IMG/VR virus record: IMGVR_UViG_3300029868_000036
Location: 1-47,494 of that record
Strand: one strand, 5' to 3'
From: a virus
Length of the DNA stretch: 47,494 nt
Part shown: one piece after another, positions 20,701 to 47,494 of the stretch
Position numbering within the stretch: position 1 is the stretch's first letter
How the letters are laid out: each line of letters opens with the position of its first letter
Translations under genes and position numbers: made by a program
The notes under the pieces: model-generated
Databases searched by the model: none
What the model was told of the DNA's origin: nothing
The model's input: only the letters and a program-made list of their open reading frames with translations

Positions 20701-23700
20701 GAGAACTTAAAGTTAATGATAGTGTTTTTAATGGGAATGCTTCTCATGCTGAACTTTATAACAGATACTTAAATAAAACAGCCCTTGCACCAAAGCTCAA
20801 AGATGAGAGTGATTCTGAAAATATCCAAAGAACTATGGATGCGGAAGAGATTTTAAATGTTACTCTTGTTCCTAAAGTCATGCAATACATAGAAAGTGTT
20901 GGACTTTCTGAAATACTTACAGATGAGTACAATAGATTTTCAAACTTCTATGTAAGACCTGAAATGACTGGTGTACTCTTAAGAGATTTACCTAAGTCTT
21001 TTCGTGGTAAACCTTTTAAAATGCAAGGGCATCAAGCCGAGGGTGCTGAAAAAATAGTCTTTAATAAAAAAGGTGTTTTAGCTTTTGCCCCCGGCGGAGG
21101 AAAAACAATCACAGCAGTTGTAGCAGTTAAAAACCTTTTGGATCAGAGTGTAATGAAAAAACCTCTTTTTGTTGTTCCTGTAAATACCATAGCACAATGG
21201 GAAGAAACTGTTAAAGAATTGTATCCTGATGCTAGTGTTTACGAGTTTCCAAAAGTGAAGAGTGGAAAGAATAAAGGTAATGCTAAAGAGTGGACACAAC
21301 TCTCTCGTGAAGAGAAAGAGCAGATGGCATTTGACCTTGCTAATAATAGATATGACTTTACTATCATTGGCGATACAATGTTTCAAAAGTTTGGTCTGCC
21401 TAGTGATGTGCTCAGTGAGTATGTTGATGACCTTGTAGCTCAGATGATAAAAGAAGAGAGTGCTACAGATGATGCAAGTAAAAAAGATAAAAAAGAGATA
21501 GTATCTGCGGAGCAAAAAAGAAAAGCTCTTAAAGTAGGTCTGAGACAAGCTTATGGTGGAGAGGTTGAGTTTGACTTTGCAAAACTTGGCTTTGATGGAC
21601 TTATAGCAGATGAAGTGCAGTACTATAAAAACATAGGTATGCAAGGTAAAGATGTTAAAGGTGGACTTGGGGCAACTATAGCTATCAAGTACTCCGATAA
21701 AGCTGGAAAGAGTCTGACTACTAAAGATATTAAAGATGGTGCAGAGCCTTACTCTGCTACTCTTGGTTCTATGAGAAGTTATGACTTTAGATTTAAAAGT
21801 AAATATGTATCTCAAAACAACAATGGTAACAATGTAATACTCCTCACAGGGACACCAACACCAAACAAACCTCTTGAACTATATACACTCCTGCAACACC
21901 TAGATGAGAATATCCTTTTAGAGTACGGCATAGAAGCTTCTAGTGATTTTGTAGATACTTTTTATGACATTGAAAATTATGAGACTACAGATAGTATTGG
22001 TAAGATAGTAAAAAGAGAAGGTCTCGGTAGTATGAAAAACTTGGAGTGGTTAGGTAAGATACTTGATAGATATGTAGACTATAAAGGTTTTGAGTCTATG
22101 CCTGACTTACCACGACCTAAGCAGATAGAAGTAGAACACTATATGAAACTCTCAAAAGCTGGGGAGGTAATCTTTGGGGATGTGCAAGCTCGACTTATTC
22201 AAGCTATAGAAGATGGTAAACTTTTAAAATCTGGTGCAATAACTGCTGATAGTATAGAGATAGCACTTGTTCCTATGGGTGCAGGTCGAAGTGCATCTAT
22301 AGACTTGAGACTCTACGATATAGGCACTAAAGGAAAGTCTGAACTTACACATGATGAACTCTCAGAGCTTATTGTTAATGATGAAGCTACGATAGAAAAC
22401 AACAAGATATTAAAAACAGTAGACCTTGTTAAAAATCAATATAAAGAGAACCCTGATAGCGGACAGATAATATTTTTAGATAGATTAAAAGTAAAAAATC
22501 CTGATGGTACTACAACTTCTACACACCAAGAGATACGAGAGCAAGTTTTAGCTACTGGTCTTTTTGATGAAACAGAGGTTGTGTTTGTTAATGGTGGTGA
22601 GTTTGTAAACCATAACACTGGTAAAGTCTCAAAGGGTTCTATTAAACCTGACATGTTAAACAAAATCATGGATATGTATAATGAAGGAAAGATAAAAGTC
22701 ATTATAGGCAATACATCTAAGCTTGGTGTTGGAGTAGACCTAAACAGAAAAACTACTGACATATATCAGTTAGATATTCCTTTTCGCCCTGATGAAATAG
22801 AGCAGAGGAATAACCGTGGTGTAAGACAAGGTAATGAAAATGCTTCTGTACGAACACATAAGTTCTTCCAACTTGGAACCTTTGATAAAAGAAGTTATGA
22901 CATTGTTATTGCTAAGAGAGGGTTTAACGACATATATGGTTTTAGTGATACATCTGATATTGTATATAATGATGGTGTTTCTAAGATAGACAACAAGTCT
23001 ATGACTGACCCATATCAAGCTATAATAGATTTAGAGAGTGATCCATTTGTGAGAGAGAAACTTAGAAAACAGAGAGTTATAGATAATGCTGTAGTGGACG
23101 CTAACAATCTTAAAAATATAGTGACAAAACTTGAAGCTGATATTAGAATTAAGCAGGGTTCTATTGTAAACTATGAAAACGGAATAAAAGGTGTAGAGTC
23201 TAACTTGCAAGAGAAGAACTACCCTGAGTATAAAGCTGTTAAAGATGTAGCAGAGAAAAAAGCTAAACTAGAGAAGTATATCTCAGATAATCAAGCTCGA
23301 AAAGTAAAATATGAAAACACTATTCAAGAGATAAGAGATGATATAAAAACTATTGAGAGTAAGCTTGATGGGAGAAGAGAGATGCAAGCTACACAGCTTG
23401 CAGATACTAAGTTTATCACTGATGAGTATACAAAAGATGGTGTGAATGTAGATATAGCTCTCATAAAAGCTGCATACACAGAGCAACAGATACTTGAGAG
23501 TGAAGAGAATGTAAGCGATAGTGGCTCGGATAGTTATATGCAAAACAAGATGAACCATTCTATTAATAACAATATGACTCAAAAAGAGAAAAAAAATCAA
23601 GAAGAAGCAGATGCTTATGCTCGTGCTAATGGTTTTGATGAAGCTGGAGCGAACTATATACCTACTTACTCTTCTTCAAATATGCCGACTCGTTCTAAAG

Positions 23701-26700
23701 ATGGAACTATAGACATAGGTGTAAAAACTGTACTTCTTCCAAGCATAGATGCTCCTATAAATGCTGATAGCTTAAGAGTATATCTTAAAGACATTATAGG
23801 CAATAGACTCTACGAAGCAAAAATAAAAGCTAAGAGTGCTTTAGGTGTTTACAAAAGACAAGATAGTGCTATACGAGTAAAAAACTATAGTGACATGGAA
23901 GTAATGGCTCATGAGATGGCACACTACTTAGACTTCTTTTACAAGAACAAGACTAAAAAATCGAATGATAGTTTCTTTAGAGTTGAGATACTTAGAAACA
24001 AAGAAGAAGTAAAAGCACTCAGCTATACTACAAACCCAAAGAATGTAATAAGAGAGGGTTTTGCAGAGTTTGTTAGACTATGGCTAACTAACTACAATTC
24101 TCTTGAACTTGTGGCTCCAAATATGGTAGCAGACTTTGAGGTAAAACTCTCATCAGATAAAGTGCTGCTTAAAAAAATGACTTTACTGCAAGAGGGTCTA
24201 CACCAGTACTTCCACCAAGGTTCTCACGCAACCCTTAGAAGTAAGCAAGGTGGAGAATTAAATAAAACTGCAAAGAAGTTACAAAGAAGTCAAGCAGAGA
24301 TAGCGAAGAACTTTAGACAAGCTACTATAGACAAGATACATAGCATTAAACGCATAGAAGCAGAAGTTTTAGGTGACAATGCATCTGATGCGATTGATAG
24401 TCCTTATAAGCTCTTACAGTTAGTCAATGGTGCTAGTTCAATTATGTATAGTGCTATGAATATAGGAATCCCTACTGTACAAGATAATGGAGATATATCT
24501 TATAGTGGAAAAGCTTTGAATGATATATTTGCACCTGTTACTTCTAAAGGAGAAGAGAGAGTACGACTCTTTAGCGATTATCTTGTAGCAAAGAGAGCTA
24601 ATGAGCTTATGGCACAAGGTAGAGAGAACCTTATAAGTAAAGATGAGATAAAAATAGGGCTTGACCTTGGCGAAATGTATCCTGAGTTTGAATCTGTTTC
24701 TGATGAGTATCAAGAGTTTAATGATAGGATGCTTGATTTTTATGTAAATATGAATCTCATTACGACTTCTCAAAGAGAGAACTTCAAAGAGTTTAATAAA
24801 AACTATGTTCCATTTGCTAGAGTTACTGAGAGTGTGCAGTTTGGAGAAGTAGCACCAGCAACTATAGGACAAAGACTCACTGGTGGTACTCGTTCTTTAG
24901 GCGATATAATGGAAAATATTATTAATGGCATAGAAAGTAATATTAAAGAGGCTCTAATTTCCCGAGGGAAATCTGTATTTTATGAGATGCTTCAAGAGAG
25001 TGGTATGGGTGGTGTTTATGCAACTAAGGTGAGTGTAGAAGATAAGCTTGTAAAAAGTGATATTCAACAGCAAGCTAAAAAGATAGCTCTTATAATGAGT
25101 GAACTTGGCATAACTGTAAGTAAAGATGGAATGATACTTAGTGGTGATATAACAAGTGACAATATCATAGATGTTAAAGAGATAGAAGCTAATCTTGTAC
25201 AAAACCCTGAGGCTTTAGAGTTTTGGACTCATGGGCATAAACCTACTTCTAAAACTGCATATATAGATAGTGCAATCATAGATGATAAGGTTGTTTACTT
25301 TGAGGTTAATGATAAGGCTCTTGTTGATGCGATGACTTCTTTTAGGAGTGCTAATTACAATGAGCTAGTTCAAGGACTCATGACTATAAAAAATGTTATG
25401 ACTTGGAACATTACTAATAATCCTCTTTTTTATCTAACAAACTTTGTGCGAGATACTATCTCTGCGAGTGTTCTTAGTAAAAACAACTTTAAGCCTGTAC
25501 TTAGTTCAATAGCTGGTGCTTATCACTTTGTAACGAAGTCAAAAACTTTTAAAGAGTTTATGGCTAGTGGTTCTGGATATGGAACAAGAAGAACAACTCT
25601 TGGAAGTGATATACAAGCCATGTCAATGCTAAAGGTTAATCGTGGGCTTGATTTAGTTAGTAAACTTATAAGTGCTATGGAGTACGGTGCTGATATATTT
25701 GAGTATGGAACTCGTGTTGGAGATTTTTCTTTAGCACAAAGGAGCGGTAAGAGTAATCTGCAATCTTCTTATGAAGCTCGTGAGGTAAGTACTGACTTTG
25801 CCATAAAAGGTGGTAACGATACATTTAGTGGGTTTATGGCTACGGTTCCTTTTATGAAAGCGGGTATCAATGGTATAGATAAAACTGCAAGAAGAATTTT
25901 CTCTTTAAATGGAGAGATGCAGTTTTCTAATGCAATCAAGTTTAAAAATCAACTTGGAGAGCTTCAAACACATAAGATAAAGATTTATGCTACTGGTGGG
26001 ATGATAGCTGGGCTTACTCTTGCTTTATGGTTTCAAAATAGAGATGATGAGAGATATAAAAAACTTACACGAGACTCTAAACTTATGTACTGGCATTTCT
26101 TTATTGGAGATAATCATATAAAAGTACCAAGACCTTATGATATAGGTTTTGCATTTTCTACTATTCCTGAGATTATAGTAGATGGTATTTATACTAAGCA
26201 TGGAGAGCAAGCGGTAAAAGACTTTCTTTGGGGATCTAAAAATATGTTTAGTGTTGGAGATATTAGTGGTTTGTTCCAGCCGATACTTGAAGATATGACA
26301 AACACTAACTGGACTGGTTCTCCTATAGTTCCTAGAAATATGCAAAATTTAGATGACTTAAGTGACCAATACTTTAGCAGCACTCCAAAGATGTATAGAG
26401 AGTTTGGCAAGGCTACAGGAACGAGTCCTATAAAACTGCAACACTATGTAGATGGATACCTTGGACTTACTGCAAAAATGATAGAAGAAGTTACAGAGAA
26501 TTTACTTTGGAATAAAAAAGAGTGGGGAGCAAGACCATTTGAGAGAAATGCTTTAGAGTTTTTAACATATAGATTTAAAGCTAGAGAGGTAGAACCTAGA
26601 AGCAAGTATAGTGAAAAGTACTATGAGCTAATGAAAAAGGCAAGTGGGGTTAAGGCTAGTTATGAGAAGAAAAGAAAAGAAGCTTTTATCGATAAAGGTA

Positions 26701-26948
26701 AAGACATAAGAGCATACATGAGCGATAAAGAAAAACAAGCTTATTTAAGTGTTGATAAAATGCTTAAGAAGTTTAACAAGACACTTACTCAGATAAAAGT
26801 TAGTATAGAAGTTGTTTCTTATGATAAGAGTTTAAGTAAGACTCAAAAAGAGAAACTAATCAATGATGCTTATACAAATAAAACAACTATGTTTAAAGAG
26901 ATAACTGAGAGTTTAGAAACTGAACTTAAAAAGCTAAAAGGGGAATAG
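14763..26948 (+). CDS. Giant polyvalent protein (4061 aa): N6-adenine DNA methyltransferase + SF2/SNF2-like helicase + HExxH metallopeptidase-like region; probable packaged/ejected anti-restriction protein
   Basis: Uninterrupted 12,186-nt ORF with a TTG start after aaagg. Methyltransferase, helicase and zincin motifs are listed as separate features. The gene follows the portal-region genes. Confidence 0.85.
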   Translation: MKKLDTFNDNEFQSLDLKEKQTIATNYFDTEIADNEFTALDTSTQTSIRDNFINAQIDFDVSDTVDKVVDFVNPPKNYIQDDTVSDPSIHNPTAPNIDGSIPTIKQKPLSIETPDTSFNQDSTSTMDIATFEDNIKPQEDYINPESGDFELAKRVVNRTNELTANAIQGTYNILGNIKSPIEYLGISTDAMDAQSKKRKEWFKDASDKLNDFVYEQNKFKLNKKDKPTHSWEEVKKGFNTGGVFDIDAWQELGNYVGSEGVASSVDMAEMVATLPLYYASRLQESAEKRAKNQNRKEPNATDYLISAPTTIGSILLDRFGLKAMTSDVVQSVGKKALDGKLTEVAKEIGSKMKDGFIKEGVTEGVQNPLEMFGEEVSTKKGLSSVEQYVDNSLAGVVAGAGMGGTLSGATATGSMALNEYSAKKRETQREEYILDTYKRDVLGNGLVATVDDNGYIEFKQSLEVKVKTIQDEFTNFVINNPEVEVPVEAVENINMQEVIVEDAKKQGLNVLNEDGLNAIDIGFKELEAEIGSTEEIALEPKGVEAEPTQVIEPTATKIETAPKNAKNLYEDDSPALQADNIGTYESGKQVEYTTSDGKSSIVTVAPSDNQYNYDRKKVAVINADGVEFAVSPSTLSIVSSAPSIEESQANARGKKKPTPSAIDAKLALNEKLYGYSEDALAQANKKLFDADKSEEARLKKLSTSDIAEEERAYYENKNTPAETQRAYDFLSTNTKKVQSKQGSLTGLEPTGQNALFDTQASEEYITPSWAKEIVSDTTKYSDIITALTDANNGTYTELSDRAMNALHSAGDPHLVKEIIRFDELDGRWDLNEIEIQEQKALYDLLENNLKGVENGTIPRRTSDTTETQGARSETGVSESKTKDNGDVQETTRGGILQGGIQEDGSTEVPSSKQDEITTDVSINDTNYKIYDDGSVLEIKKDGKLTDFKLDKQKEDSIRQGASWTGSTPEYEYSNLSKVYLVSKLSKASYYGSEQKYKNFIDKLESGDLPKNEATTIALNEMATALDVKAKQLNQTREVYKNESELRKYEGLDKDTIKKYEDGTQRRKDSTASRGSDADLQETAKSDKGQTRVTRDSDASDNRQTPKDIIFDSAKVYSTKGVTDEIPSRLISKQIQKDVARYVKQLADRLGYEFALNAKGKKLSYNGVSDNIAEAGGNTTFKLFKPKSDIGIYVSLNYDLDYKSDSNNDAYTLSDGFVGGHLFRTTSKSGVDGNNQFIPTHKLDSKEFIDDIIYEVENRIKREETKNASENKSSTTTDRTSDTAGVPTAKQKTPESKSDKGSDKSVPNSDKRPDRLSDDRSNRNEVPTKDERVDRLPTTSEDKLNEQQTTNADTVLPKPNERLTPTKNYSLVGKESVELTKGQRKKFNASALDIIKKPLEEITEADREILRHYTGEGGLDAVNENSINQHYTNYETVDAMYSALKSTGITMDKVLEPAVGSGNFVGFNPDASWDVVDIDTTNIEVTKRLYPQIKNFYDETYETFAGKNYDLIISNVPFASEQLLMREHAMTIKPAFKAIHNFYFAHSIDKVKDNGVVAFMTSTGTMDGTTTARSLRKYLMDRGDLIGAFRLPEKSQAKNSHTDTMIDIIFIQKRPSGVESRQNDINNLFINVGSREGFAMNEYFIANPEFLLGDEVLIDKDKTKMGKEGWIVRGESNLEKIKLNYEPYKKLKKSKEEKSNFVDLDEARVYAKNNALVMKVVQDTKVFSEITSDSFTLFDKVVTFRDSEQIVMFGTKLKGNNTNKALHLNRIMTLTEDAVNQESKTLLENALSEIESYKEIYEKSPHNDLGLKKFMKANRADVKLKEFMSYFDKDFNPAAIYGEKTRFKNSGDIKIDSSSPLMDRALFYSNFDSIIDTSKSYEFLNSNDIKQLKSESLFVQSGENEIQLGFMYYAGNVYKKLDNLENLNASGNISSAEYKAQYTNLKGIIPKAIPYKSIKVKGGESWIPSVVKDKLLAVQKGELKVNDSVFNGNASHAELYNRYLNKTALAPKLKDESDSENIQRTMDAEEILNVTLVPKVMQYIESVGLSEILTDEYNRFSNFYVRPEMTGVLLRDLPKSFRGKPFKMQGHQAEGAEKIVFNKKGVLAFAPGGGKTITAVVAVKNLLDQSVMKKPLFVVPVNTIAQWEETVKELYPDASVYEFPKVKSGKNKGNAKEWTQLSREEKEQMAFDLANNRYDFTIIGDTMFQKFGLPSDVLSEYVDDLVAQMIKEESATDDASKKDKKEIVSAEQKRKALKVGLRQAYGGEVEFDFAKLGFDGLIADEVQYYKNIGMQGKDVKGGLGATIAIKYSDKAGKSLTTKDIKDGAEPYSATLGSMRSYDFRFKSKYVSQNNNGNNVILLTGTPTPNKPLELYTLLQHLDENILLEYGIEASSDFVDTFYDIENYETTDSIGKIVKREGLGSMKNLEWLGKILDRYVDYKGFESMPDLPRPKQIEVEHYMKLSKAGEVIFGDVQARLIQAIEDGKLLKSGAITADSIEIALVPMGAGRSASIDLRLYDIGTKGKSELTHDELSELIVNDEATIENNKILKTVDLVKNQYKENPDSGQIIFLDRLKVKNPDGTTTSTHQEIREQVLATGLFDETEVVFVNGGEFVNHNTGKVSKGSIKPDMLNKIMDMYNEGKIKVIIGNTSKLGVGVDLNRKTTDIYQLDIPFRPDEIEQRNNRGVRQGNENASVRTHKFFQLGTFDKRSYDIVIAKRGFNDIYGFSDTSDIVYNDGVSKIDNKSMTDPYQAIIDLESDPFVREKLRKQRVIDNAVVDANNLKNIVTKLEADIRIKQGSIVNYENGIKGVESNLQEKNYPEYKAVKDVAEKKAKLEKYISDNQARKVKYENTIQEIRDDIKTIESKLDGRREMQATQLADTKFITDEYTKDGVNVDIALIKAAYTEQQILESEENVSDSGSDSYMQNKMNHSINNNMTQKEKKNQEEADAYARANGFDEAGANYIPTYSSSNMPTRSKDGTIDIGVKTVLLPSIDAPINADSLRVYLKDIIGNRLYEAKIKAKSALGVYKRQDSAIRVKNYSDMEVMAHEMAHYLDFFYKNKTKKSNDSFFRVEILRNKEEVKALSYTTNPKNVIREGFAEFVRLWLTNYNSLELVAPNMVADFEVKLSSDKVLLKKMTLLQEGLHQYFHQGSHATLRSKQGGELNKTAKKLQRSQAEIAKNFRQATIDKIHSIKRIEAEVLGDNASDAIDSPYKLLQLVNGASSIMYSAMNIGIPTVQDNGDISYSGKALNDIFAPVTSKGEERVRLFSDYLVAKRANELMAQGRENLISKDEIKIGLDLGEMYPEFESVSDEYQEFNDRMLDFYVNMNLITTSQRENFKEFNKNYVPFARVTESVQFGEVAPATIGQRLTGGTRSLGDIMENIINGIESNIKEALISRGKSVFYEMLQESGMGGVYATKVSVEDKLVKSDIQQQAKKIALIMSELGITVSKDGMILSGDITSDNIIDVKEIEANLVQNPEALEFWTHGHKPTSKTAYIDSAIIDDKVVYFEVNDKALVDAMTSFRSANYNELVQGLMTIKNVMTWNITNNPLFYLTNFVRDTISASVLSKNNFKPVLSSIAGAYHFVTKSKTFKEFMASGSGYGTRRTTLGSDIQAMSMLKVNRGLDLVSKLISAMEYGADIFEYGTRVGDFSLAQRSGKSNLQSSYEAREVSTDFAIKGGNDTFSGFMATVPFMKAGINGIDKTARRIFSLNGEMQFSNAIKFKNQLGELQTHKIKIYATGGMIAGLTLALWFQNRDDERYKKLTRDSKLMYWHFFIGDNHIKVPRPYDIGFAFSTIPEIIVDGIYTKHGEQAVKDFLWGSKNMFSVGDISGLFQPILEDMTNTNWTGSPIVPRNMQNLDDLSDQYFSSTPKMYREFGKATGTSPIKLQHYVDGYLGLTAKMIEEVTENLLWNKKEWGARPFERNALEFLTYRFKAREVEPRSKYSEKYYELMKKASGVKASYEKKRKEAFIDKGKDIRAYMSDKEKQAYLSVDKMLKKFNKTLTQIKVSIEVVSYDKSLSKTQKEKLINDAYTNKTTMFKEITESLETELKKLKGE
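18960..19700 (+). other. N6-adenine methyltransferase domain of the giant protein (approximate bounds)
   Basis: SAM-binding motif I is EPAVGSGNF (19125-19151). Catalytic motif IV is NVPF (19302-19313), about 59 aa downstream. Confidence 0.75.
21000..22900 (+). other. SF2 / SNF2-like helicase domain of the giant protein (approximate bounds)
   Basis: Motifs read: Walker A APGGGKT (21087-21107), DEVQ box (21609-21620), LLTGTPTPNKPLELY, motif VI QRNNRGVRQG (22803-22832). Confidence 0.8.
23850..24100 (+). other. Zincin-like HExxH region of the giant protein (approximate bounds)
   Basis: HEMAH is at 23910-23924, with a downstream REGFAEF segment. This is a single short motif, so the call is tentative. 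Confidence 0.45.
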
Positions 26949-34108: not shown

Positions 34109-34975
34109 TTATATCTCCTCTATTGTGATTTTGTAGTTATTGTTATTTGAGTGTTTTACAAAGTCTTCAGTATCAATAGCGATGCGACCTTCTAAGTCGC
34201 CACTGCTTAAGCTTATAAAATTTCCCATGTCGTTTACTGTTCCAAAACCATAAGAGATAAATACTTTGCTTTTGTTTATCTTCCTTTGAGGTACTTCTTT
34301 TACTTTAGCACCATCCCATCCCTCTAAACTTTTAAAGTTCTTTATCTCATCACGGGTAATCTCTTTTTTTACTATGAGATCATAGACTTCTTTTTGTATC
34401 TTCTTATCGGGGAGTCTTGCTATCTCATCTAAAACAGATAAGCCTATATCTCTTTTTCCCTCTTCTATATCTTTGATGATGCTCTCGTCGAGCTTGAGAC
34501 AAGAAAAAGCTTTAGAGAGATAAGACTGTGACTTCCCTATAGCTTTTGCTAAGTCGCGTTTACATTCATACTTTCCACTTGCTTGTAGCTTCCCGATATG
34601 AACTGCTATCTCGAAGTCTGTTAAGTCCTCTCTTTGTATGTTCTCTATAAGTGCAAGTTCTAAGACTTTTGCATCATCTACATTTACTATGTGTGTTTTT
34701 ATGGTTGTCATAGTTGTAAACTGCTTATGAGCACGGTATCTTCTCTCACCGCTTACTATCATGTAACCATCATCGCGTTTGACAACAACTATAGGTTGCA
34801 AAAGTCCGTTTGTCTCTATGTCTCTTGCTAGCTCTATGAGTGCATACGAGTCAAACTCTTTACGGGGTTGCTTAGGATTTGCATAGATTTTTGAGAGTTC
34901 TATCTCTGCGAATGAGCTTATGCCACCTGTACGAGTGTTTCCCTCTGTCGCTTTTTTAATTGCCGATAAGTTCAT
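34109..34975 (-). CDS. parB: ParB-family partition / DNA-binding protein
   Basis: The ParB N-terminal domain motifs are PKQPRKEF ... LLQPIVV ... IVSGERRYRA. Confidence 0.85.
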   Translation of the reverse strand: MNLSAIKKATEGNTRTGGISSFAEIELSKIYANPKQPRKEFDSYALIELARDIETNGLLQPIVVVKRDDGYMIVSGERRYRAHKQFTTMTTIKTHIVNVDDAKVLELALIENIQREDLTDFEIAVHIGKLQASGKYECKRDLAKAIGKSQSYLSKAFSCLKLDESIIKDIEEGKRDIGLSVLDEIARLPDKKIQKEVYDLIVKKEITRDEIKNFKSLEGWDGAKVKEVPQRKINKSKVFISYGFGTVNDMGNFISLSSGDLEGRIAIDTEDFVKHSNNNNYKITIEEI

Positions 34976-35570
34976 CTCTTAGTCCTCTTATCTCTTCTTT
35001 TGCTCTGTCGTTATTTGTGTCAAAAACACTAGCACCTACACCAAGAGTAGACTTATATAGCTTTCTACTTCTTATGACTGTGCTAAGGAGTTTATATTGT
35101 TCTCCTATGGCTTCTTTTATGATGCTAAAATTACGAGTGAGTGGGTGGATGTTGTTGAGCACTATGTTAAACTCAGTATCTCCAAGTATGAGAGTATCAA
35201 GTATGCCCTCAAATGTTTTAAAGCCTAAAACCTCTGTGACACTATCACTTATAGGTATGAGTACTTTATGAGAGCAGTCTATAGCTGTTCTGTTTATGTC
35301 GCTATCAAAACCGCCAATATCTACTATGTAATAGTCGCTCTTTTTGTTTGTTGCTTGTAAAAGAACTTCTAGTACTTCACCCACTGTTTTAGGTTGTAGT
35401 ACTTCTATGTCATCAAGTCCACGGATTTGGTTTACAAAGTATAGTGTCTGCTGAAAGTCAAGGTCTACGAGTGTTACACTCTTATCTATCTCTTTAAGCG
35501 AATGTGCTAATTGCCAAGCTAGAGTGCTTTTACCTACTCCGCCTTTTGTGTGTGCTACTGTTATTGTCAT
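34956..35570 (-). CDS. parA: ParA-family partition ATPase
   Basis: The deviant Walker A is AHTKGGVGKST. The protein is 204 aa and overlaps the parB start by 20 nt. Confidence 0.9.
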   Translation of the reverse strand: MTITVAHTKGGVGKSTLAWQLAHSLKEIDKSVTLVDLDFQQTLYFVNQIRGLDDIEVLQPKTVGEVLEVLLQATNKKSDYYIVDIGGFDSDINRTAIDCSHKVLIPISDSVTEVLGFKTFEGILDTLILGDTEFNIVLNNIHPLTRNFSIIKEAIGEQYKLLSTVIRSRKLYKSTLGVGASVFDTNNDRAKEEIRGLRDELIGN

Positions 35571-35620
35571 TTCCTAACCCCTTAGTTTATGTTGTGTTCA
35601 TTATATAAATATGTTTTTAG

Positions 35621-35650
35621 TTAAGTGGGGTATATAAAGTACCCACTTAA
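35621..35650 (-). promoter_or_regulatory. Conserved motif copy 4 (TATATACCCCACTTAA on the - strand) embedded in a 30-bp palindrome upstream of parA
   Basis: TTAAGTGGGGTATATAAAGTACCCACTTAA has inverted TTAAGTGGG / CCCACTTAA arms. The - strand copy ends 51 nt upstream of the parA ATG, and TATAAT lies between. Confidence 0.5.
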
Positions 35651-35651
35651 A

Positions 35652-36299
35652 TTACCACTCTCTTCTGTTTTTCCCTCGGGAAATCTCTGCATTACTTACA
35701 CTGGCATATCTTGCCGTGGTTGCTATACTTGCATGACCTATATCTTGTCTTATGTGCTCAAGGCTCAAGTCTTTGCTATGAGCTGTAGTTATATAACCGC
35801 TTCTAAAGCTATGAGTAGAGTAGAGAGTTCCTAGAACTGAGTGTATAAACTTGTTCATCATAAGTTTAAGAGCACTTACAGTCATAGGTTTATCTGAGTT
35901 ATTTTTTGCAAAAAGATAGCCTATGTTTTTTTGTAGCAACTCTTCTAAAAACTTCACTTGCTCTCTGTTTTCATCAAATAATATAAGTCGTGGTGTTTTA
36001 GTCTTTGTCGCGTTTGTCAAAGAGTACTCATTATCTTGTACCATCTTTTGAATCTCATCTGTATGAATGTTTATAATCTCACTCACACGACACCCAGTTA
36101 AATAAAGCAGAGTAAATGCACTATGGAGTTTTACCTTTGTGCTACGCTTTATACTAAGACTCTTATGTGTTGCATTTATGAGTCTGTCAAACTCTTTTTT
36201 GAGTATGGGCTTTTTTACTCTGGTAGTTCCTATTTTCCTACCAACTTGTTCTTTTCCTTCTTGTAATCTCTGTAGATTTATTGATTTTGTATGATTCAT
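35652..36299 (-). CDS. Small tyrosine recombinase (Xer/resolvase-like)
   Basis: 215 aa. Catalytic motifs are TGCRVSE (Arg), HSFRSGY (His-x-x-Arg) and GHASIATTARY (His...Tyr). It has no long N-terminal arm-binding domain and sits directly upstream of parAB. Confidence 0.8.
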   Translation of the reverse strand: MNHTKSINLQRLQEGKEQVGRKIGTTRVKKPILKKEFDRLINATHKSLSIKRSTKVKLHSAFTLLYLTGCRVSEIINIHTDEIQKMVQDNEYSLTNATKTKTPRLILFDENREQVKFLEELLQKNIGYLFAKNNSDKPMTVSALKLMMNKFIHSVLGTLYSTHSFRSGYITTAHSKDLSLEHIRQDIGHASIATTARYASVSNAEISRGKNRREW

Positions 36300-37667: not shown

Positions 37668-37806
37668 TTTATACTCCTTTAAGAGATTTTCTAATTTTTA
37701 GAGCTTGTATAAGGAGATATACAACTGGAACTACTATAAAAGCTAGTTCAACTAATGTTTTAGCTTGATTTATATTTTCATATAACATTTTGTTTCCTTT
37801 ATTAAA

Positions 37807-37891
37807 AGTCACTTATGAATGACTTTGTGTATTTGAAAGTCTAAGATATGTTACCTTAAAAACATATTAAAATAGTCATCTATTCGTGACT
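37807..37891. promoter_or_regulatory. Two operator-like sites AGTCA-N8-TGACT in the divergent promoter region
   Basis: The sites are AGTCACTTATGAATGACT (37807-37824) and AGTCATCTATTCGTGACT (37874-37891). The second is nested in an 11-bp inverted repeat, AACATATTAAA / TTTAATATGTT (37861-37871 / 37891-37901). Confidence 0.45.
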
Positions 37892-37939
37892 TTAATATGT
37901 TTAAGTTAATTTATTCGTGTTTTTTGCTAAAATTGGAGC

Positions 37940-38137: not shown

Positions 38138-38583
38138 AAAAGATTGTATTAGTATTATTATTATTATTAGTTAGTAATAACTTACTTGCAGAAGATAACT
38201 TGAACTGGATGTTTGAAGACAAATCTAGTAATGAAGTAAAGCAAGATACAAAGATAACGAAAGCAAATTGTATCAGACCTATACAGCTAGAAGCACTTAA
38301 TGACAATAGAGACGTGCATACAATTAACAAAATGAGAGAACGATACTCTAGTTGCATGACCAACTTCATTAATAAACAAGTAGAACTATATAACATATCC
38401 AAAAACAATAACAATAGAAAATCATATATGATGTCTATAAATAAAGCCAAAGATGAACTTCATACATATCTTAATAAGGATATTGAAGAAAATCAACAGC
38501 ACCAGAGTACAGTAAAACTTGGTGGATTAGGTTATAAGAGAGAGTTAGAGGAAGAGAAGAAGAAAGTAGAAAAACTTAATTGA
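38134..38583 (+). CDS. Secreted protein with signal peptide (moron candidate)
   Basis: The N-terminus MKKIVLVLLLLLVSNNLLA-EDN is a signal peptide. The ATGA overlaps the upstream gene. Confidence 0.55.
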   Translation: MKKIVLVLLLLLVSNNLLAEDNLNWMFEDKSSNEVKQDTKITKANCIRPIQLEALNDNRDVHTINKMRERYSSCMTNFINKQVELYNISKNNNNRKSYMMSINKAKDELHTYLNKDIEENQQHQSTVKLGGLGYKRELEEEKKKVEKLN

Positions 38584-38966
38584 AAAACCTATTAATCTCT
38601 TTTATTATTTTACTTCCTGTGCTATCTATCAGTCTATTAGCTAGCTCACAGAATGGATATACTCCTCAAAAGATTAAAACACTCGCATACAACTACAAAA
38701 AAGTAAGAGAACATAGGCTTACTTTAAATATTGCAAAGAACCCACTTATATTCTTTATGTCTTATGAGTTTAAAGGTTATGTTACGGGTATACTAGATAA
38801 CGATACGAGTCTACATCAATGCAAAAAACAATATTCATACTCAGAGATAATATATAAAACAGCAATCGTTATTTCTGAATCTAAACTCGATAAAAAAGTA
38901 CAGTCTCATATTAGTACTCTTGTTGCAATAAATTTCGCTTGTGATAGTTCTAATTGGAGTAAATAA
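38580..38966 (+). CDS. Secreted protein with signal peptide (TTG start; moron candidate)
   Basis: The N-terminus MKNLLISFIILLPVLSISLLASSQ is a signal peptide. The TTGA overlaps the upstream stop. Confidence 0.5.
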   Translation: MKNLLISFIILLPVLSISLLASSQNGYTPQKIKTLAYNYKKVREHRLTLNIAKNPLIFFMSYEFKGYVTGILDNDTSLHQCKKQYSYSEIIYKTAIVISESKLDKKVQSHISTLVAINFACDSSNWSK

Positions 38967-39133
38967 GAGAGTCAATATTTCTACAATCATCTTAGCCATA
39001 CAAATGTATGCACTAAAGCACTAAAAGCCCTCACAGAGCGTCCTACAGCCATACAACTACAAGAAAACACTACAAACAGAGCAAAAAATTTTCCTAACAG
39101 CCGAGCCGCACATCTTCCACCACCTCACAAACT

Positions 39134-39160
39134 TCGCCGCCTTTTGAAATTTTTTTGGCT
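39134..39160. repeat. Left arm of a perfect 27-bp inverted repeat
   Basis: TCGCCGCCTTTTGAAATTTTTTTGGCT is the exact reverse complement of 39875-39901. Confidence 0.9.
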
Positions 39161-39428
39161 ATTTTTAGGTTATTCCGATTTTAATATGAGAAATAGAGTT
39201 GTATTAGAATAGCTATTATATAAAAGAGTTGAATCTGAGGACATCGGACTTAGATTCCGTGAGAACTACTGTTTTTACGGAAGGAATTGCAGGTTGAGTT
39301 TGGTTTTGTGAGATTTTTCGGAATGTTCGGGTTTCGGGTGTGGGGTTTATGTGGTGTTGAGTTAGTGGAACTGATGGGAAATTCCTAATAGTTGTATCGT
39401 TTTGCTGACATCGGGAAGATGATGCGAG

Positions 39429-39650
39429 TGGATTATGTTGTTTTTACTTACAATGCTATGATGTCGGGAAATTTAGTAAAAGTGGTGTAAACATATTTAA
39501 TTATTTATTTTAATATGTTTAGTTTAAGTTGAGATGGATTATATCTAAGTTTAGTGGTGTGTTTAAGGTTCGGGCTTGTTTTTGGTGGATTATGGCTTAA
39601 GGTTGGAGTGGTAGTCAATCATTAGTTGACTTGATGGTTCATGGATTATG
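39429..39650 (+). repeat. Four direct TGGATTAT(G/A) repeats (iteron-like) plus an AT-rich palindrome
   Basis: Copies start at 39429, 39535, 39586 and 39642 (spacings 106, 51, 56 bp). The AT-rich AAACATATTTAA-N8-TTTAATATGTTT lies at 39489-39520. Confidence 0.5.
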
Positions 39651-39874
39651 TTGATGGTGGTGTGGTGGTGCTTGTTTGTGGTGGTACTTACTTGTGGGTT
39701 GTGGTGGTGCTCAAAAAGTGTTTATCTCCTCTGAACTCCGTTGGGGGGGGTAATTCCCCAAGCCTGACTCTGTCTGAACTATATATGAGGTATTTGCCCT
39801 ATGAATATTTTAAACTAGATTTAGTTTCCCCTAAAAGTGAAACCAAAAAGACAGTGTGATACTCGTATAAATCA

Positions 39875-39901
39875 AGCCAAAAAAATTTCAAAAGGCGGCG
39901 A
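39875..39901. repeat. Right arm of the perfect 27-bp inverted repeat
   Basis: AGCCAAAAAAATTTCAAAAGGCGGCGA is the reverse complement of 39134-39160. The arms are separated by 714 bp. Confidence 0.9.
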
Positions 39902-40020
39902 TTTTTCAGGTTAAAATATCCATCTTGAAAATTTTGCGAATTTTCATACAAATAGAGTACTTTTTTTTACTTTTAAAAATGCTAGTATCTCTTGAAAGTA
40001 CCTTGACAACGAGCTTTGAA

Positions 40021-40085
40021 GTACTAGACACAAATGTAGTCTAGCTAGACACAATCGTGGTCGAGTACTAAACACAATTGTGGTC
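40021..40085 (+). promoter_or_regulatory. Three tandem operator-like repeats (consensus TA(G/A)ACACAAT-GTGGTC) downstream of the repressor gene
   Basis: The TAGACACAA/TAAACACAA cores are at 40025, 40046 and 40069 (spacing 21 and 23 bp). The third contains the palindrome CACAATTGTG. TTGACA is at 40003-40008 and TATAAT at 40088-40093. Confidence 0.5.
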
Positions 40086-40105
40086 ACTATAATAATACCA
40101 ACCTA

Positions 40106-40140
40106 TCCCTTATAAAATAACTAAAGGGAATTTTTACTTT
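40106..40140 (+). terminator. Weak candidate intrinsic terminator (+ strand)
   Basis: A 6-bp stem TCCCTT / AAGGGA with a 12-nt loop is followed by ATTTTTACTTTTT. The stem is short, so confidence is low. Confidence 0.3.
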
Positions 40141-40171
40141 TTACTAAAAGCTATAGATTTTTAAAAGAGTC

Positions 40172-40846
40172 TTATAGTTTAGATATTTGCATATTTGCAA
40201 CAACTCTTCCAATTATTCTAAAATCTTCACAGTCTGCTTTGAGTTGTGGGAAGAGTGGATTATCTGATTTTAAAATTATAGATTTATCACGAGGCTCTAT
40301 AAAAATTCTTTTCACATAGACTTCATCGCATAGGAATAGAACATATATTTTCCCGTTTACAGCATCAGTATCACTCTTGTCTATAAAAATTACATCTTCA
40401 TCTTCTATGGTCCCACTCATGGAGTTACCCACTACTCTTATGGCTTCAATGCTTTTAGAAGTAGTTGGAAGCATATCAGGAGCCATATTTATGTATATAG
40501 GTTTACAGTCTCCGTTGGTGCATCCATATCCAGCACTAGCATTAATATCCTTATAGTAAGGGATTGAAATTGTTTTTGAGAACATGGCACTCACTGCTGA
40601 TATATCACCAAGAAGTAAATCTCCATTATTTGGGATAGCTTCTCCTACTCCATCCTCAATCCATTCTTTAGAAAATCCATACCGTTCGCTCAATAGTGTA
40701 GAATCTTTAAGTTTTATATTTTTAGTTTTGTCTTGCTCCCAGCCCTTTATTTTCCCATCTGTACAGCTTAGTATATCGGCTAGTTCTTGCTGATTTATGC
40801 CTAATTTTTTACGAATAAATCTTATTCTATCTGATAACTTTTCCAA
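40172..40846 (-). CDS. cI: CI/LexA-like repressor (XRE HTH + S24 autopeptidase domain), TTG start
   Basis: The N-terminal HTH is IRKKLGINQQELADILSCTDGKIKGWEQ. The C-terminal S24 motifs are VVGNSMSGT (Ser) and VYVKRI (Lys). AAGGAG lies 5 nt upstream of the TTG. Confidence 0.85.
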   Translation of the reverse strand: MEKLSDRIRFIRKKLGINQQELADILSCTDGKIKGWEQDKTKNIKLKDSTLLSERYGFSKEWIEDGVGEAIPNNGDLLLGDISAVSAMFSKTISIPYYKDINASAGYGCTNGDCKPIYINMAPDMLPTTSKSIEAIRVVGNSMSGTIEDEDVIFIDKSDTDAVNGKIYVLFLCDEVYVKRIFIEPRDKSIILKSDNPLFPQLKADCEDFRIIGRVVANMQISKL

Positions 40847-41152: not shown

Positions 41153-41817
41153 CTTACAACATAAACATAAATCAGTTAAAAGCTCAGGAGTGGGATTTAT
41201 CACTCAAAGCTTGTTTTGGAATGTGTAAGATGGCTGACTTGTCATCTTGGGCTAATCCTGTAGTGGTCGATAAAAAAGTTTATTATGTACTCTACAGGAA
41301 TAAACTACTCCAAGAGATACCCTTAGTTGGAAAATCTCTTACAACCGCTTCTCGCATAATTACTGAACTTGAAAACAAGGGTATTATTGAGTCAATAAAT
41401 AAAGCGACTACACCAGCTTATAGATTAACAGATAAAGGTAAAGAGTGGTTAAGTGATACTGCTTGCAAAATTTCAAATGATTGCGAAAATAATCCACTTG
41501 AAAAATCAGATGAAGAAAAGGTTACATTTACTTTTAGACTCAAAACAGAAATGGAATATGAAGATTTAAGTGATGATTATAAACATTATCTACATGATGG
41601 TTGCATGGTGTATCTCAAAAAAGAAGGACTTTCATCATCAAACTATGATGATTTTATAAATAAATATAAAAGTACTGGTAAAAAGTATAAAGACTGGAGA
41701 GCTGCTTTTAAAACATGGTGTGCTAATGCTATACGATATGGTGCAAAAGTAACTAAAACTCAAAAAAATAGCTCAAATGGTGGCGAAAGCTACTCTCTTG
41801 ATGATGTGAATTTATAA
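41149..41817 (+). CDS. Winged-helix-containing protein (replication initiator candidate)
   Basis: 222 aa. GKSLTTASRIITELENKGIIESINK resembles a MarR/wHTH recognition segment. The gene sits at the head of the replication module. Confidence 0.35.
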   Translation: MTYNININQLKAQEWDLSLKACFGMCKMADLSSWANPVVVDKKVYYVLYRNKLLQEIPLVGKSLTTASRIITELENKGIIESINKATTPAYRLTDKGKEWLSDTACKISNDCENNPLEKSDEEKVTFTFRLKTEMEYEDLSDDYKHYLHDGCMVYLKKEGLSSSNYDDFINKYKSTGKKYKDWRAAFKTWCANAIRYGAKVTKTQKNSSNGGESYSLDDVNL

Positions 41818-46559: not shown

Positions 46560-47494
46560 ATGAGCCTCATAAATAATATAAATACAATAGCAGATGATTT
46601 GAACTTAGGTCTTGCTTCAAAGATAGTTATTATCAATGATAATATTTCTACTTTTGATGTAAAAGTAACAGATTCTATTATCGCTCTTGATACACAAGCA
46701 GGTTCTAAACAAGCACAACTAGACACATACACAACAACAAAAGAGACTCAGCTCACAGCATTTAAAGATGCAAAAGTAGTAGACCTAGACACATACACAA
46801 CAACAAAAGAGACTCAACTCACAGCATTTAAAGATGCAAAAGTAGTAGACCTAGACACATACACAACAACAAAAGAGACTCAACTCACAGCATTTAAAGA
46901 TGCAAAAGTAGTAGACCTAGATACTCATACTGTAACCAAGCAGACTCAGCTAGATACTTATGAAGTAGCAAAAGAGACAGAGCTTGATGCACACAGAGAC
47001 ATTAAGATAACAGAGCTTGATACACACACAACTACTAAACAAACTCAATTAGATACTCACACAACAACAAAAGAGACTCAAATAGATACATATACAGCAG
47101 GGTTTCTTGCAAGTATGTTAGCTACTAAAACAAAGACAGGTAGGTATCTTCGTAATGTAGAAGAGCATGCTTATGATGTAGATAAAAAGTTTACCTACAT
47201 TAAGGCTATTGAGGGAACCAAGGTAAAAGCTTTAGATGAAGTGACACTTCTTAAAAAAGATGCTATTAATCAGTATAGTAATCTAAAAAAAGTAGAACTA
47301 GATAGTTATGTCACTACTGTAAATAAACCAGTACTTGATACTCATACTATAAGTAAACAGACGCAACTTGACACATACACAACAACAAAAGAGACTCAAC
47401 TCACAGCATTTAAAGATGCAAAAGTAGTCGACCTTGACACATACACAACAACAAAAGAGACTCAACTCACAGCATTTAAAGATGCAAAAGTAGT
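46560..47494 (+). CDS. N-terminal part of the wrap-around tail-fibre-like repeat protein (continues at 1..305; about 376 aa in total)
   Basis: I translated from ATG 46560 to the window end and found no in-frame stop. The protein has repeated 11/22-residue units (DTYTTTKETQL TAFKDAKVVDL). It is absent from the ORF track because it lacks a stop inside the window. Confidence 0.6.
   Translation, partial: MSLINNINTIADDLNLGLASKIVIINDNISTFDVKVTDSIIALDTQAGSKQAQLDTYTTTKETQLTAFKDAKVVDLDTYTTTKETQLTAFKDAKVVDLDTYTTTKETQLTAFKDAKVVDLDTHTVTKQTQLDTYEVAKETELDAHRDIKITELDTHTTTKQTQLDTHTTTKETQIDTYTAGFLASMLATKTKTGRYLRNVEEHAYDVDKKFTYIKAIEGTKVKALDEVTLLKKDAINQYSNLKKVELDSYVTTVNKPVLDTHTISKQTQLDTYTTTKETQLTAFKDAKVVDLDTYTTTKETQLTAFKDAKV
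46722..46919 (+). repeat. Three near-perfect 66-bp in-frame tandem repeats
   Basis: Units start at 46722, 46788 and 46854. Copy 1 differs by one base (cagctc vs caactc). Degenerate 33-bp units follow to about 47100. Confidence 0.9.
47370..47494 (+). repeat. Second cluster of the same 66-bp repeat (about 2 units, continuing to position 116 after the junction)
   Basis: Units start at 47370 and 47436. The first unit carries the variant GTCGACCTT and the second ends in GTGGACCTA after the wrap. Confidence 0.85.

Follow-up and report, generated by a model that had tools for sequence, protein, structure and literature searches.

A conserved non-coding region between convergent genes

The DNA analysed here, called the window, is the 47,494-nt virus sequence IMGVR_UViG_3300029868_000036 from IMG/VR, which represents a complete or circularly permuted temperate phage genome of ~47.4 kb with ~35% G+C. 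The interval 38967–40171 of the window is bounded on its left by the stop codon of a plus-strand open reading frame (ORF) of 128 aa (38580–38966) and on its right by the stop codon of a minus-strand repressor gene (40172–40846), whose product combines a helix-turn-helix with an S24 peptidase domain and resembles lambda CI. The interval holds a real, conserved non-coding region, the element described below, which we tentatively interpret as a replication-control region of the phage. To the right of the repressor gene, the gene order is a cro-like gene, a gene for a 222-aa winged-helix protein termed O-like, a gene for a 146-aa protein, a DnaB-like helicase gene and the large terminase gene. To the left of the element lies a small plus-strand operon for a 65-aa helix-turn-helix protein and two secreted proteins, and further left, on the minus strand, are the genes for a DUF7659 protein, a 215-aa tyrosine recombinase (35652–36299), ParA and ParB.

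Relatives of the phage were collected in three ways: by searches with repressor homologues, which led to contigs from IMG/VR, ENA, Logan and NCBI assemblies; by a DNA pattern taken from a conserved segment of the element (block E, see below); and by a DNA pattern taken from its inverted repeat. The element was found in 18–19 distinct related phage genomes, mostly from Sulfurimonas/Campylobacterales, including a Sulfurimonas metagenome-assembled genome (L006) and a prophage within a 422-kb Campylobacterales contig (L016). It occupies the same syntenic position in the same orientation in all of these genomes, while the flanking proteins are merely 26–80% identical. A first-pass annotation of the window, made from its letters, had described the interval as gene-free and had named decaying filler as the outcome that would refute its functional ideas. 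Because position, orientation and block sequence are kept in 18–19 genomes with diverged flanking proteins, filler is excluded.

The absence of genes is borne out by the relatives, across which no conserved ORF exists in 38967–40171 at any position, strand or frame. A hidden protein gene was considered and rejected, as the peptide that can be read through blocks D and E is hit by stop codons or by 1-nt indel frameshifts in several relatives. Coding on the minus strand through palindrome F is ruled out by stop codons in all three frames.

Organization of the element

The anatomy of the element was derived from two alignments, A2 and A4, together with a scripted 19-sequence alignment. The element consists of near-invariant blocks that are separated by unalignable spacers of the same compositional skew. 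The order is a C/A-rich left arm, the left inverted-repeat arm (IRL), blocks B, C, D and E, variable spacer V1, blocks F and G, spacer V2, block H, spacer V3 and one to three copies of the right inverted-repeat arm (IRR). The distance between the inverted-repeat arms ranges from 505 to 1064 nt in relatives. In the window, the skewed module is arranged as follows.

39027–39039, minus strand: terminator-like hairpin GCUCUGUGAGGGC followed by UUUUAG; its G·U pair is a C·A mismatch on the plus strand
39040–39134, plus strand: left skewed arm, C/A-rich and G-poor, poorly conserved in sequence; defined by composition in 12 relatives
39129–39167, plus strand: IRL, with a perfect core at 39135–39159; the minus strand reads an A-run followed by TTTCAAAAGGCGGCGA
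39173–39234, no strand assigned: AT-rich centre (G+C fraction 0.26–0.38) where the skew changes sign; defined by alignments
39173–39182: block B, TTCCGATTTT, within the AT-rich centre
39212–39234: block C, AGCtaTTAtATAAAAgAGTTGAA, AT-rich, within the AT-rich centre
39259–39338, plus strand: blocks D (CCGT..ACGGAGGAAnTGG..GGTGAGTTTGG) and E (TTTTCGGAAnnTTCGGnTTTCGG); defined by alignments
39339–39487, plus strand: variable spacer V1, unalignable and always C-poor; 14–378 nt in relatives
39488–39521, no strand assigned: block F, an AT-rich palindrome AAACATATTTAA...TTAATATGTTT; 146 of 162 cells Watson-Crick
39522–39604, plus strand: block G, four direct copies of TTAAG(G/T)TT including the invariant GTTTAAGGTT and GGCTTAAGGTT; defined by alignments
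39605–39718, plus strand: variable spacer V2, with TGTGGTGGTGCT repeats in the window; 1–215 nt in relatives
39719–39809, plus strand: block H, comprising a G8 tract (39743–39750), ATTCCCCAA (39753–39761), CTATATATGnG and TATGAATAT (39800–39808); defined by alignments
39868–39906, plus strand: IRR, with a perfect core at 39876–39900 that is the plus sense of the oriented motif described below

At the site of the leftmost hairpin, relatives carry either the minus-strand form or a plus-strand hairpin, GGGCUUUAUAUGAGCC, with a U-run. The AT-rich centre (39173–39234) contains no conserved canonical −10 hexamer. Block E contains three TTCGG words spaced by ~9–11 nt, and the words CGGAA and TTCGG are invariant or nearly so in blocks D and E. 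A hairpin in block D is weakly kept, with 54 of 79 cells in Watson-Crick pairing. Palindrome F shows some compensatory changes (in L002 and L013). Within it lies a minus-strand TAAAAT, found in 13 of 18 sequences, the sole −10-like hexamer to be conserved anywhere in the element. Two word repeats that the first-pass annotation had pointed out were recovered: the window contains exactly two copies of GTGGTGGTGCT, at 39662 and 39701, and TCGGG occurs five times in the element (39327, 39334, 39411, 39464 and 39570) out of 12 times on the plus strand of the window.

The G-tracts of 8 to 10 residues, at 39743–39750 in the window and also after IRR in L006, L022, L026 and L034, vary in length among relatives. 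Homopolymers of this kind are a typical location for slipped-strand phase variation in Campylobacterota.

Strand composition of the element

The abrupt change from C/A-rich to G/T-rich sequence on the plus strand, which had first drawn attention to the interval, is pronounced. The plus strand at 38990–39134 has 39.3% A, 31.7% C, 11.0% G and 17.9% T (71% A+C), whereas at 39240–39720 it has 21.6% A, 7.9% C, 30.6% G and 39.9% T (70.5% G+T), with a GC skew of +0.59. The latter is the most extreme 481-nt segment of the whole 47.5 kb in terms of skew; the runner-up reaches −0.46 and lies within coding sequence. The 145 nt to the left of the skewed stretch are its compositional mirror image. Relative to the whole window, the plus strand at 39240–39720 is depleted in C (−7.8 points) and A (−13.5) and enriched in T (+9.7) and G (+11.6), and to the left of the centre the same loss of C and A and gain of T and G is seen on the minus strand.

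The sign of the skew is identical in 12 of 12 relatives that were aligned at that stage, unalignable spacers included, which indicates that the skew is more than chance. In these relatives, the GC skew ranges from +0.3 to +0.7 across blocks D to G, and in the left arm it ranges from −0.46 to −0.78 with a positive AT skew. The skew of the V2 spacer is positive in most relatives, not in all. Since the skew is kept in spacers that have no conserved sequence, it points to a strand-specific process and not to protein-binding sites alone. Skew and conservation together thus argue for an element that is under selection or subject to a persistent strand-specific process.

Loss of C and A with gain of T and G is expected for a strand that is often single-stranded, be it the non-template strand of heavy transcription or of an R-loop, a displaced strand, or the lagging-strand template near a replication start. 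The change from C/A-rich to G/T-rich sequence has the polarity expected around a point from which DNA is opened divergently. In the reading that we prefer, the skew places this point of divergence in the AT-rich centre, at 39135–39235.

The inverted repeat and the oriented motif

The skewed core is bracketed by a perfect 25-nt inverted repeat, CGCCGCCTTTTGAAATTTTTTTGGC, at 39135–39159 (plus) and 39876–39900 (minus), which extends to 39 nt at 87% identity; no 25-nt inverted-repeat match was found in shuffled sequence. The core of the repeat, TCGCCGCCATTTGAAA(T/A)TTTTTT, is near-invariant in 18 relatives, and IRR is present in two or three copies in several of them. The 23 base pairs that can be drawn from arm to arm are almost all invariant, with two compensatory events only (in the window and in L022). 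All copies of the motif in L022, unpaired ones among them, share one variant, a pattern that fits recognition of the sequence by a factor better than an RNA helix.

The motif, an A-run followed by TTTCAAATGGCGGCGA or TCAAATGGCGGCGA, is also found outside the element. In the window, a third oriented copy (CAAATGGTGGCGA after an A-run) is located at 41772–41786 on the plus strand, at the 3′ end of the O-like gene. Many relatives carry it at the 3′ end of the cro-like gene (e.g. L001:5680, L014:972, L016:4689, L021:4669 and L022:4671) and within the O-like gene or at its end (3′-end copies at L014:371, L016:4078 and L021:4053). These extra copies are always co-oriented with IRR; IRL alone faces the opposite way. 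Copies at the cro-like gene are read in two different frames, as QMAAN or as NGGE, which shows that the nucleotide sequence itself is conserved and that a nucleic-acid signal lies within coding sequence.

The motif forms no hairpin and lacks both a conserved start codon and promoter-like hexamers. A role as a start codon was rejected because the window copies read AAAAGG and not AAATGG, and by eye the motif fits neither the sigma-70 nor the sigma-54 promoter consensus. A promoter for a phage RNA polymerase was likewise discarded, because the 4061-aa protein considered as a polymerase is a polyvalent LPD38/SNF2 protein. This protein is encoded by a single ORF at 14763–26948 and has LPD38 and SNF2/ResIII helicase domains. 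A miniature inverted-repeat transposable element or other non-autonomous insertion element has terminal inverted repeats as well, but the element described here is present in one copy per genome at a constant syntenic position. The layout recalls lambda nutL/nutR, in that the motif points leftward at IRL and rightward at IRR and, in many relatives, again downstream of the cro-like gene, where lambda has nutR. Unlike lambdoid nut or put sites, it has no boxB or put hairpin, and the copy after the cro-like gene is lacking in the window, L013, L002 and L024. The layout also recalls that of opposed Ter sites, without the defining features of that family.

The phages L022 and L023 have identical repressors and diverge ~20 nt into the outer IRR copy (L023:5654–5982), beyond which the sequence of L023 is unrelated. 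This divergence inside an IRR copy indicates that the repeat can be a recombination junction.

Iteron-like repeats and a candidate origin core

A second group of features is situated between the skewed module and the repressor gene, and is considered here together with the gene for the O-like protein.

40020–40088, no strand assigned: three 21–23-bp palindromic direct repeats CTAGACACAAnnGTnGTCnAG, iteron-like; unique in the window
40089–40145, no strand assigned: AT-rich tract TATAATAATACC, palindrome TCCCTTATAAAATAACTAAAGGGA (40106–40129) and T-run (40130–40144); G+C fraction ~0.23, adjoining the repressor stop codon
41149–41817, plus strand: O-like winged-helix gene, 222 aa, putative replication initiator; assigned from gene order and a structure model

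The repeats are unique to this locus in every genome and number two to five in relatives. In every relative, they are followed by TATATATAATACCTAT or TATATATAATACC and then by an AT-rich palindrome. As in iteron-type origins, the repeats are clustered at a single locus and the AT-rich tract lies directly alongside. The first-pass annotation had proposed an origin as one possibility; the iteron-like repeats, the AT-rich tract and the palindrome at 40020–40150 give this partial support, although not at the place to which it pointed. It had missed the three palindromic repeats, as well as the 25-nt inverted repeat and the ParA, ParB and tyrosine recombinase genes.

The sequence of the repeats differs among phages, and their architecture splits exactly with two clades of the O-like protein that are 25–30% identical. 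Phages with a clade A protein have three to five tandem repeats of 21–23 bp, and phages with a clade B protein have two palindromes, G..AAA..TTGC/TGGC, that are 33–41 bp apart. The repeat type follows neither the repressor, whose recognition helix is nearly invariant, nor the cro-like protein. In L036 (1229–1588) and at the equivalent positions of L034, L035, L037, L038 and L040, the S24 repressor is replaced by an unrelated helix-turn-helix repressor of ~119 aa. The whole arrangement persists in phages with this repressor, and the clade B repeats of L037 resemble those of L021 and L022. Exchange of the repressor beside an unchanged set of element, repeats and O-like/helicase module makes the immunity region mosaic.

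The O-like protein is encoded between the cro-like gene and the 146-aa gene, which is followed by the DnaB-like helicase gene. A structure model of the protein has an N-terminal winged helix, and the top-scoring folds include, weakly (E 8e-3), the N-terminal domain of the plasmid initiator RepA (4pql, 4pt7). The O-like protein is the proposed replication initiator and probably the binder of the repeats at 40020–40088. Two other assignments of the repeats were rejected. Operators of CI, like lambda OL/OR, would be expected in the intergenic region between the repressor and cro-like genes, where the repeats are absent in every phage, and the repeats do not track the helix-turn-helix of the repressor. 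A parS function does not fit either, since the repeats vary among phages although ParB has a conserved recognition helix. A second iteron cluster with CTAGACAC at 46.7–47.5 kb proved to be a coding 22-aa tandem repeat. The ORF in question starts at 46560 and spans the end junction (46560–47494); it contains near-perfect 66-nt (22-aa) tandem repeats, LDTYTTTKETQLTAFKDAKVVD, and is tail-fibre-like.

Several contigs of relatives break within the region, and physical genome ends were considered as the reason. This was rejected, the breaks being assembly artefacts: L025 and L027 break within the iteron arrays. Three independent assemblies, L017, L018 and L019, also break at one shared 22-nt tandem repeat in V1 (their ends and L016:6160–6260), again an artefact.

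RNA structure and transcription signals

The first-pass annotation had suggested a large ornate non-coding RNA (ncRNA), such as GOLLD or ROOL, with extensive pairing through G·U wobble. Rfam 15 gave no match at the gathering score in the window for any family, including GOLLD (RF01998), ROOL (RF03087), HEARO, OLE and raiA. At E ≤ 10, a chance match to snoU61 (E 4.5) was alone in the window, and none of 15 relatives has an Rfam match within the element. The mean folding z-scores of the conserved blocks on both strands (−0.4/−0.0, −0.9/−1.6 and +0.2/−0.3) are near those of shuffled sequence, and minimum free energies of the minus strand are near zero. RNAalifold recovered the block F hairpin, a GGGG/CCCC hairpin and a short UUAAG pairing, and nothing more. 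Conserved columns are mostly invariant with few covarying, and hairpins D and H contain many mismatches. At 8% C, a plus-strand RNA could pair mostly via G·U and a minus-strand RNA hardly at all. The element shares with GOLLD, ROOL, HEARO, OLE and raiA RNAs a length of 0.5–1 kb, an intergenic location in a phage and a G+C content above that of its AT-rich genome. It differs from them in that it matches no covariance model, has almost no covarying helices and no significant folding energy, and contains too little C (8%) for extensive Watson-Crick pairing. The suggestion of an ornate GOLLD/ROOL-like ncRNA is thus not supported, and extensive wobble pairing is not indicated.

A sponge for CsrA of the CsrB/RsmZ type is not supported either. 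The frequency of GGA equals the dinucleotide-shuffle expectation in 19 of 19 elements (14 against 13.6 in the window). Only GGGAA within V1 is enriched, with 18 occurrences against 4.0 expected (z 5.9), in 11 of 18 sequences. Scans for promoters and terminators yielded no consistent transcription unit.

Interpretation as a possible replication-control region

We interpret the interval as the non-coding replication-control region of a temperate, plasmid-like Sulfurimonas/Campylobacterales phage, composed of a lambda-like iteron origin and an accessory zone that is transcribed or prone to R-loops. We give this interpretation a probability of roughly 0.35. In such a region, the origin core would occupy 40020–40145 and comprise two to five phage-specific repeats, the AT-rich tract and the palindrome. 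The O-like protein, encoded 1 kb to the right, would bind the core and recruit the 146-aa protein and the DnaB-like helicase. The accessory module, at 39133–39901, would be the conserved, inverted-repeat-bracketed segment of 0.5–1.1 kb. Within and beside it, one strand would be single-stranded with unusual frequency: rightward of ~39200 the plus strand, leftward of 39135 the minus strand. The cause would be untranslated, C-poor and G/U-rich transcription that runs outward from the AT-rich centre at 39135–39235. Rightward transcription toward the iterons would form R-loops and thereby open, activate or prime the origin, and its low C content would let the RNA evade Rho. Deamination of the displaced strand, which turns C to T and A to G, may account in part for the surplus of G and T in the spacers. 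What the analysis shows is the conservation and anatomy of the region, the absence of coding sequence and of ornate RNA structure, and the match of repeat type with O-like clade; protein binding to the DNA, activity as an origin, R-loops, and transcription and its direction are inferred.

Origins that are primed by a transcript or an RNA are known from ColE1 RNA II, T4 oriF/oriG and the mitochondrial D-loop region. In our reading, the element would resemble such R-loop origins in being a non-coding lead-in of several hundred bases to the proposed origin, with a G-rich strand as the non-template strand, and it resembles the mitochondrial control region in its short conserved blocks split by variable spacers. 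It differs from R-loop origins in its proposed iterons and dedicated initiator, which ColE1 lacks, and in its two-sided skew.

The closest comparison for the origin core is with lambda, whose origin consists of iterons and an AT-rich tract, can be unwound with two iterons and needs transcriptional activation (PMC7466680; PMC3017604). Dyad-symmetric repeats beside an AT-rich tract, two to five in number as in lambdoid phages, are found here too, and the gene for the presumed cognate DNA-binding protein stands just after the cro-like gene and just before a gene presumed to serve in recruitment of the helicase. The reliance of the lambda origin on nearby transcription (PMC7466680, PMC3017604) has a proposed counterpart here. 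Several features set the phage apart from lambda: the proposed origin is not inside the initiator gene but beyond the repressor gene, no sequence similarity to lambda O could be detected in the O-like protein, the phage encodes its own DnaB-like helicase, and the skewed, inverted-repeat-bracketed module of 0.5–1.1 kb has no lambda counterpart.

Several observations weigh against this interpretation. No canonical −10 hexamer is conserved on the plus strand within the element and no promoter could be placed; the terminator-like hairpins at both of its flanks are strand-ambiguous across the family; and the G clusters of block E are not conserved in every relative. The model leaves the inverted repeat and the motif copies in the cro-like and O-like genes unaccounted for. 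The evidence from the initiator fold is weak (E 8e-3, as given above), and generic MarR/ArsR winged helices score alike. The repeats stand beside a TATAAT and could be operators of a leftward promoter like lambda PL, and the location of the proposed origin outside the initiator gene, when set against lambda, likewise tells against it.

It is also conceivable, though doubtful, that the interval represents a novel kind of phage control region. Its inverted-repeat-bracketed strand would be displaced by stable R- or D-loops with a C-depleted, G/U-rich RNA, in the manner of the mitochondrial D-loop, and would start or license replication of a plasmid-like prophage in Campylobacterota, with the oriented 23-nt motif marking both ends as well as sites within replication genes. 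The type of system to which the interval is assigned is known; this variant of it, the oriented motif and the possible R-loop mechanism are new.

Alternative explanations

As an alternative, the element would encode one or more long, largely unstructured ncRNAs that act in trans, either a G/U-rich plus-strand RNA or a C/A-rich minus-strand RNA that is co-transcribed with, or starts just downstream of, the repressor gene. Such an RNA would act through short single-stranded words (UUCGG in three copies, UUAAGGUU in four, and GGGAA), titrating an RNA-binding protein or pairing with phage mRNAs, and its inverted-repeat motif could pair with the copies at the ends of the cro-like and O-like genes. 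Skew in unalignable spacers would then reflect a constraint at the level of the transcript. The enrichment of GGGAA in V1, the minus-strand terminator at 39027–39039 in the window, a position downstream of the repressor like that of the lysogen-expressed lambda rexAB, and the conservation of the motif in two frames, which points to action at the nucleic-acid level, all agree with this view. However, the element shows no RNA structure, no covariation and no Rfam family, its GGA content is not above the expectation from composition in the window or, similarly, in the relatives, and the extra motif copies are lacking in L013, L002 and L024, the window itself being without the cro-like copy. A long, untranslated, C-rich and G-poor minus-strand RNA would moreover be an ideal substrate for Rho, and on balance we consider a trans-acting RNA somewhat unlikely. 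Rho itself provides a further explanation, in which the interval is a two-sided zone of Rho-dependent termination that insulates convergent transcription: plus-strand transcripts would meet ~100 nt, and minus-strand read-through from the repressor gene ~500 nt, of C-rich, G-poor RNA. The RNA entering on each strand would indeed be C-rich, G-poor, untranslated and weakly structured, the hallmark of Rho loading, and segments of at least 80 nt with these properties of a Rho utilization (rut) site are found at 39040–39134 on the plus strand and at 39720–39240 on the minus strand. No intrinsic terminator was found on the plus strand after the 128-aa gene in the window, but in many relatives the left flank is already equipped with good intrinsic terminators. 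Near-invariant blocks, an inverted repeat, direct repeats and a length of 500 nt would not be accounted for by termination, and we regard this explanation as unlikely.

In a scaffold made of DNA only, with no role for transcription, the element would serve maintenance proteins of the phage, either as a ParB centromere or as a fork trap with opposed, Ter-like 23-nt motifs. The window contains no canonical parS, no Noc-type site and no other centromere candidate, including near parA/parB, where no other repeat cluster is found; the recognition helix of ParB is conserved, and so is the sequence of motif and blocks; the motif has a direction, which reverses across the element, every right-hand copy pointing the same way; and inverted Ter sites are known beside unidirectional plasmid origins. 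Binding of proteins, however, does not account for the strand-specific composition of the variable spacers. ParB of the chromosomal Spo0J type binds 16-bp palindromes and the motif is not a palindrome, and no candidate terminator protein was identified in the analysis, so that a scaffold of this kind appears quite improbable. A fimS-like switch is the last explanation to be weighed. The 740-bp core would be flipped by the 215-aa tyrosine recombinase, which is as large as FimB/FimE and whose gene is found 2.9 kb leftward, and flipping would redirect an internal promoter. Inverted repeats of 23–39 nt around a non-coding segment, a tyrosine recombinase of ~200 aa that consists of the catalytic domain only and is conserved in the family, and the divergence of L023 from L022 ~20 nt inside the outer IRR copy are all reminiscent of fimS. 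Yet the core has a single orientation relative to both flanks in all 18–19 independent assemblies, and the skew inside and outside the repeats forms one coherent pattern, as for a fixed orientation. The arms have no dyad-symmetric core site, and further copies, in direct orientation, are found in essential genes; recombination at these would remove the immunity region. In another difference from fimS, the recombinase gene does not border the element; it adjoins parA/parB, where a dimer resolvase is expected. An invertible switch therefore seems very unlikely.

Genome context

Positions 1–105 of the window repeat positions 47386–47490; this overlap of the ends indicates that the genome is circular or permuted. 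No tRNA or tmRNA gene was found in it, and no similar phage was found in the deposited phage collection. The genes at 34109–36299 encode a ParB of the chromosomal Spo0J type, a short ParA and the 215-aa tyrosine recombinase with a catalytic domain only. By gene content, the combination of ParA, ParB and a small tyrosine recombinase suggests that the prophage is kept as a plasmid. A second divergent control region is present at 37668–37939, between a minus-strand gene of 99 aa and the plus-strand 65-aa helix-turn-helix gene, which is of the Cro/CI type and is the first gene of the small secreted-protein operon that converges on the element. In one relative, a full-length 5S rRNA gene (L014:3122–3237; Rfam RF00001, 73 bits) is located amid phage genes, ~300 nt from the left flank of the element.

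Implications for phages of Campylobacterota

To our knowledge, almost nothing is known about replication or the upkeep of lysogeny in phages of Sulfurimonas and other free-living Campylobacterota, and the region 38967–40171 is not mentioned in the literature that we found on Sulfurimonas phages. The present analysis delimits a conserved cis-acting region, resolves it into parts, and puts forward a likely initiator with the sites predicted for it. The oriented 23-nt motif, which is kept in two reading frames within genes, is a well-defined target for seeking the factor that binds it. If an R-loop or a displaced strand does form in the element, the region would be a parallel, in a bacterial virus, to the origins of ColE1 and of mitochondria, and it would offer a clear case of a local base skew that records a strand-opening process.

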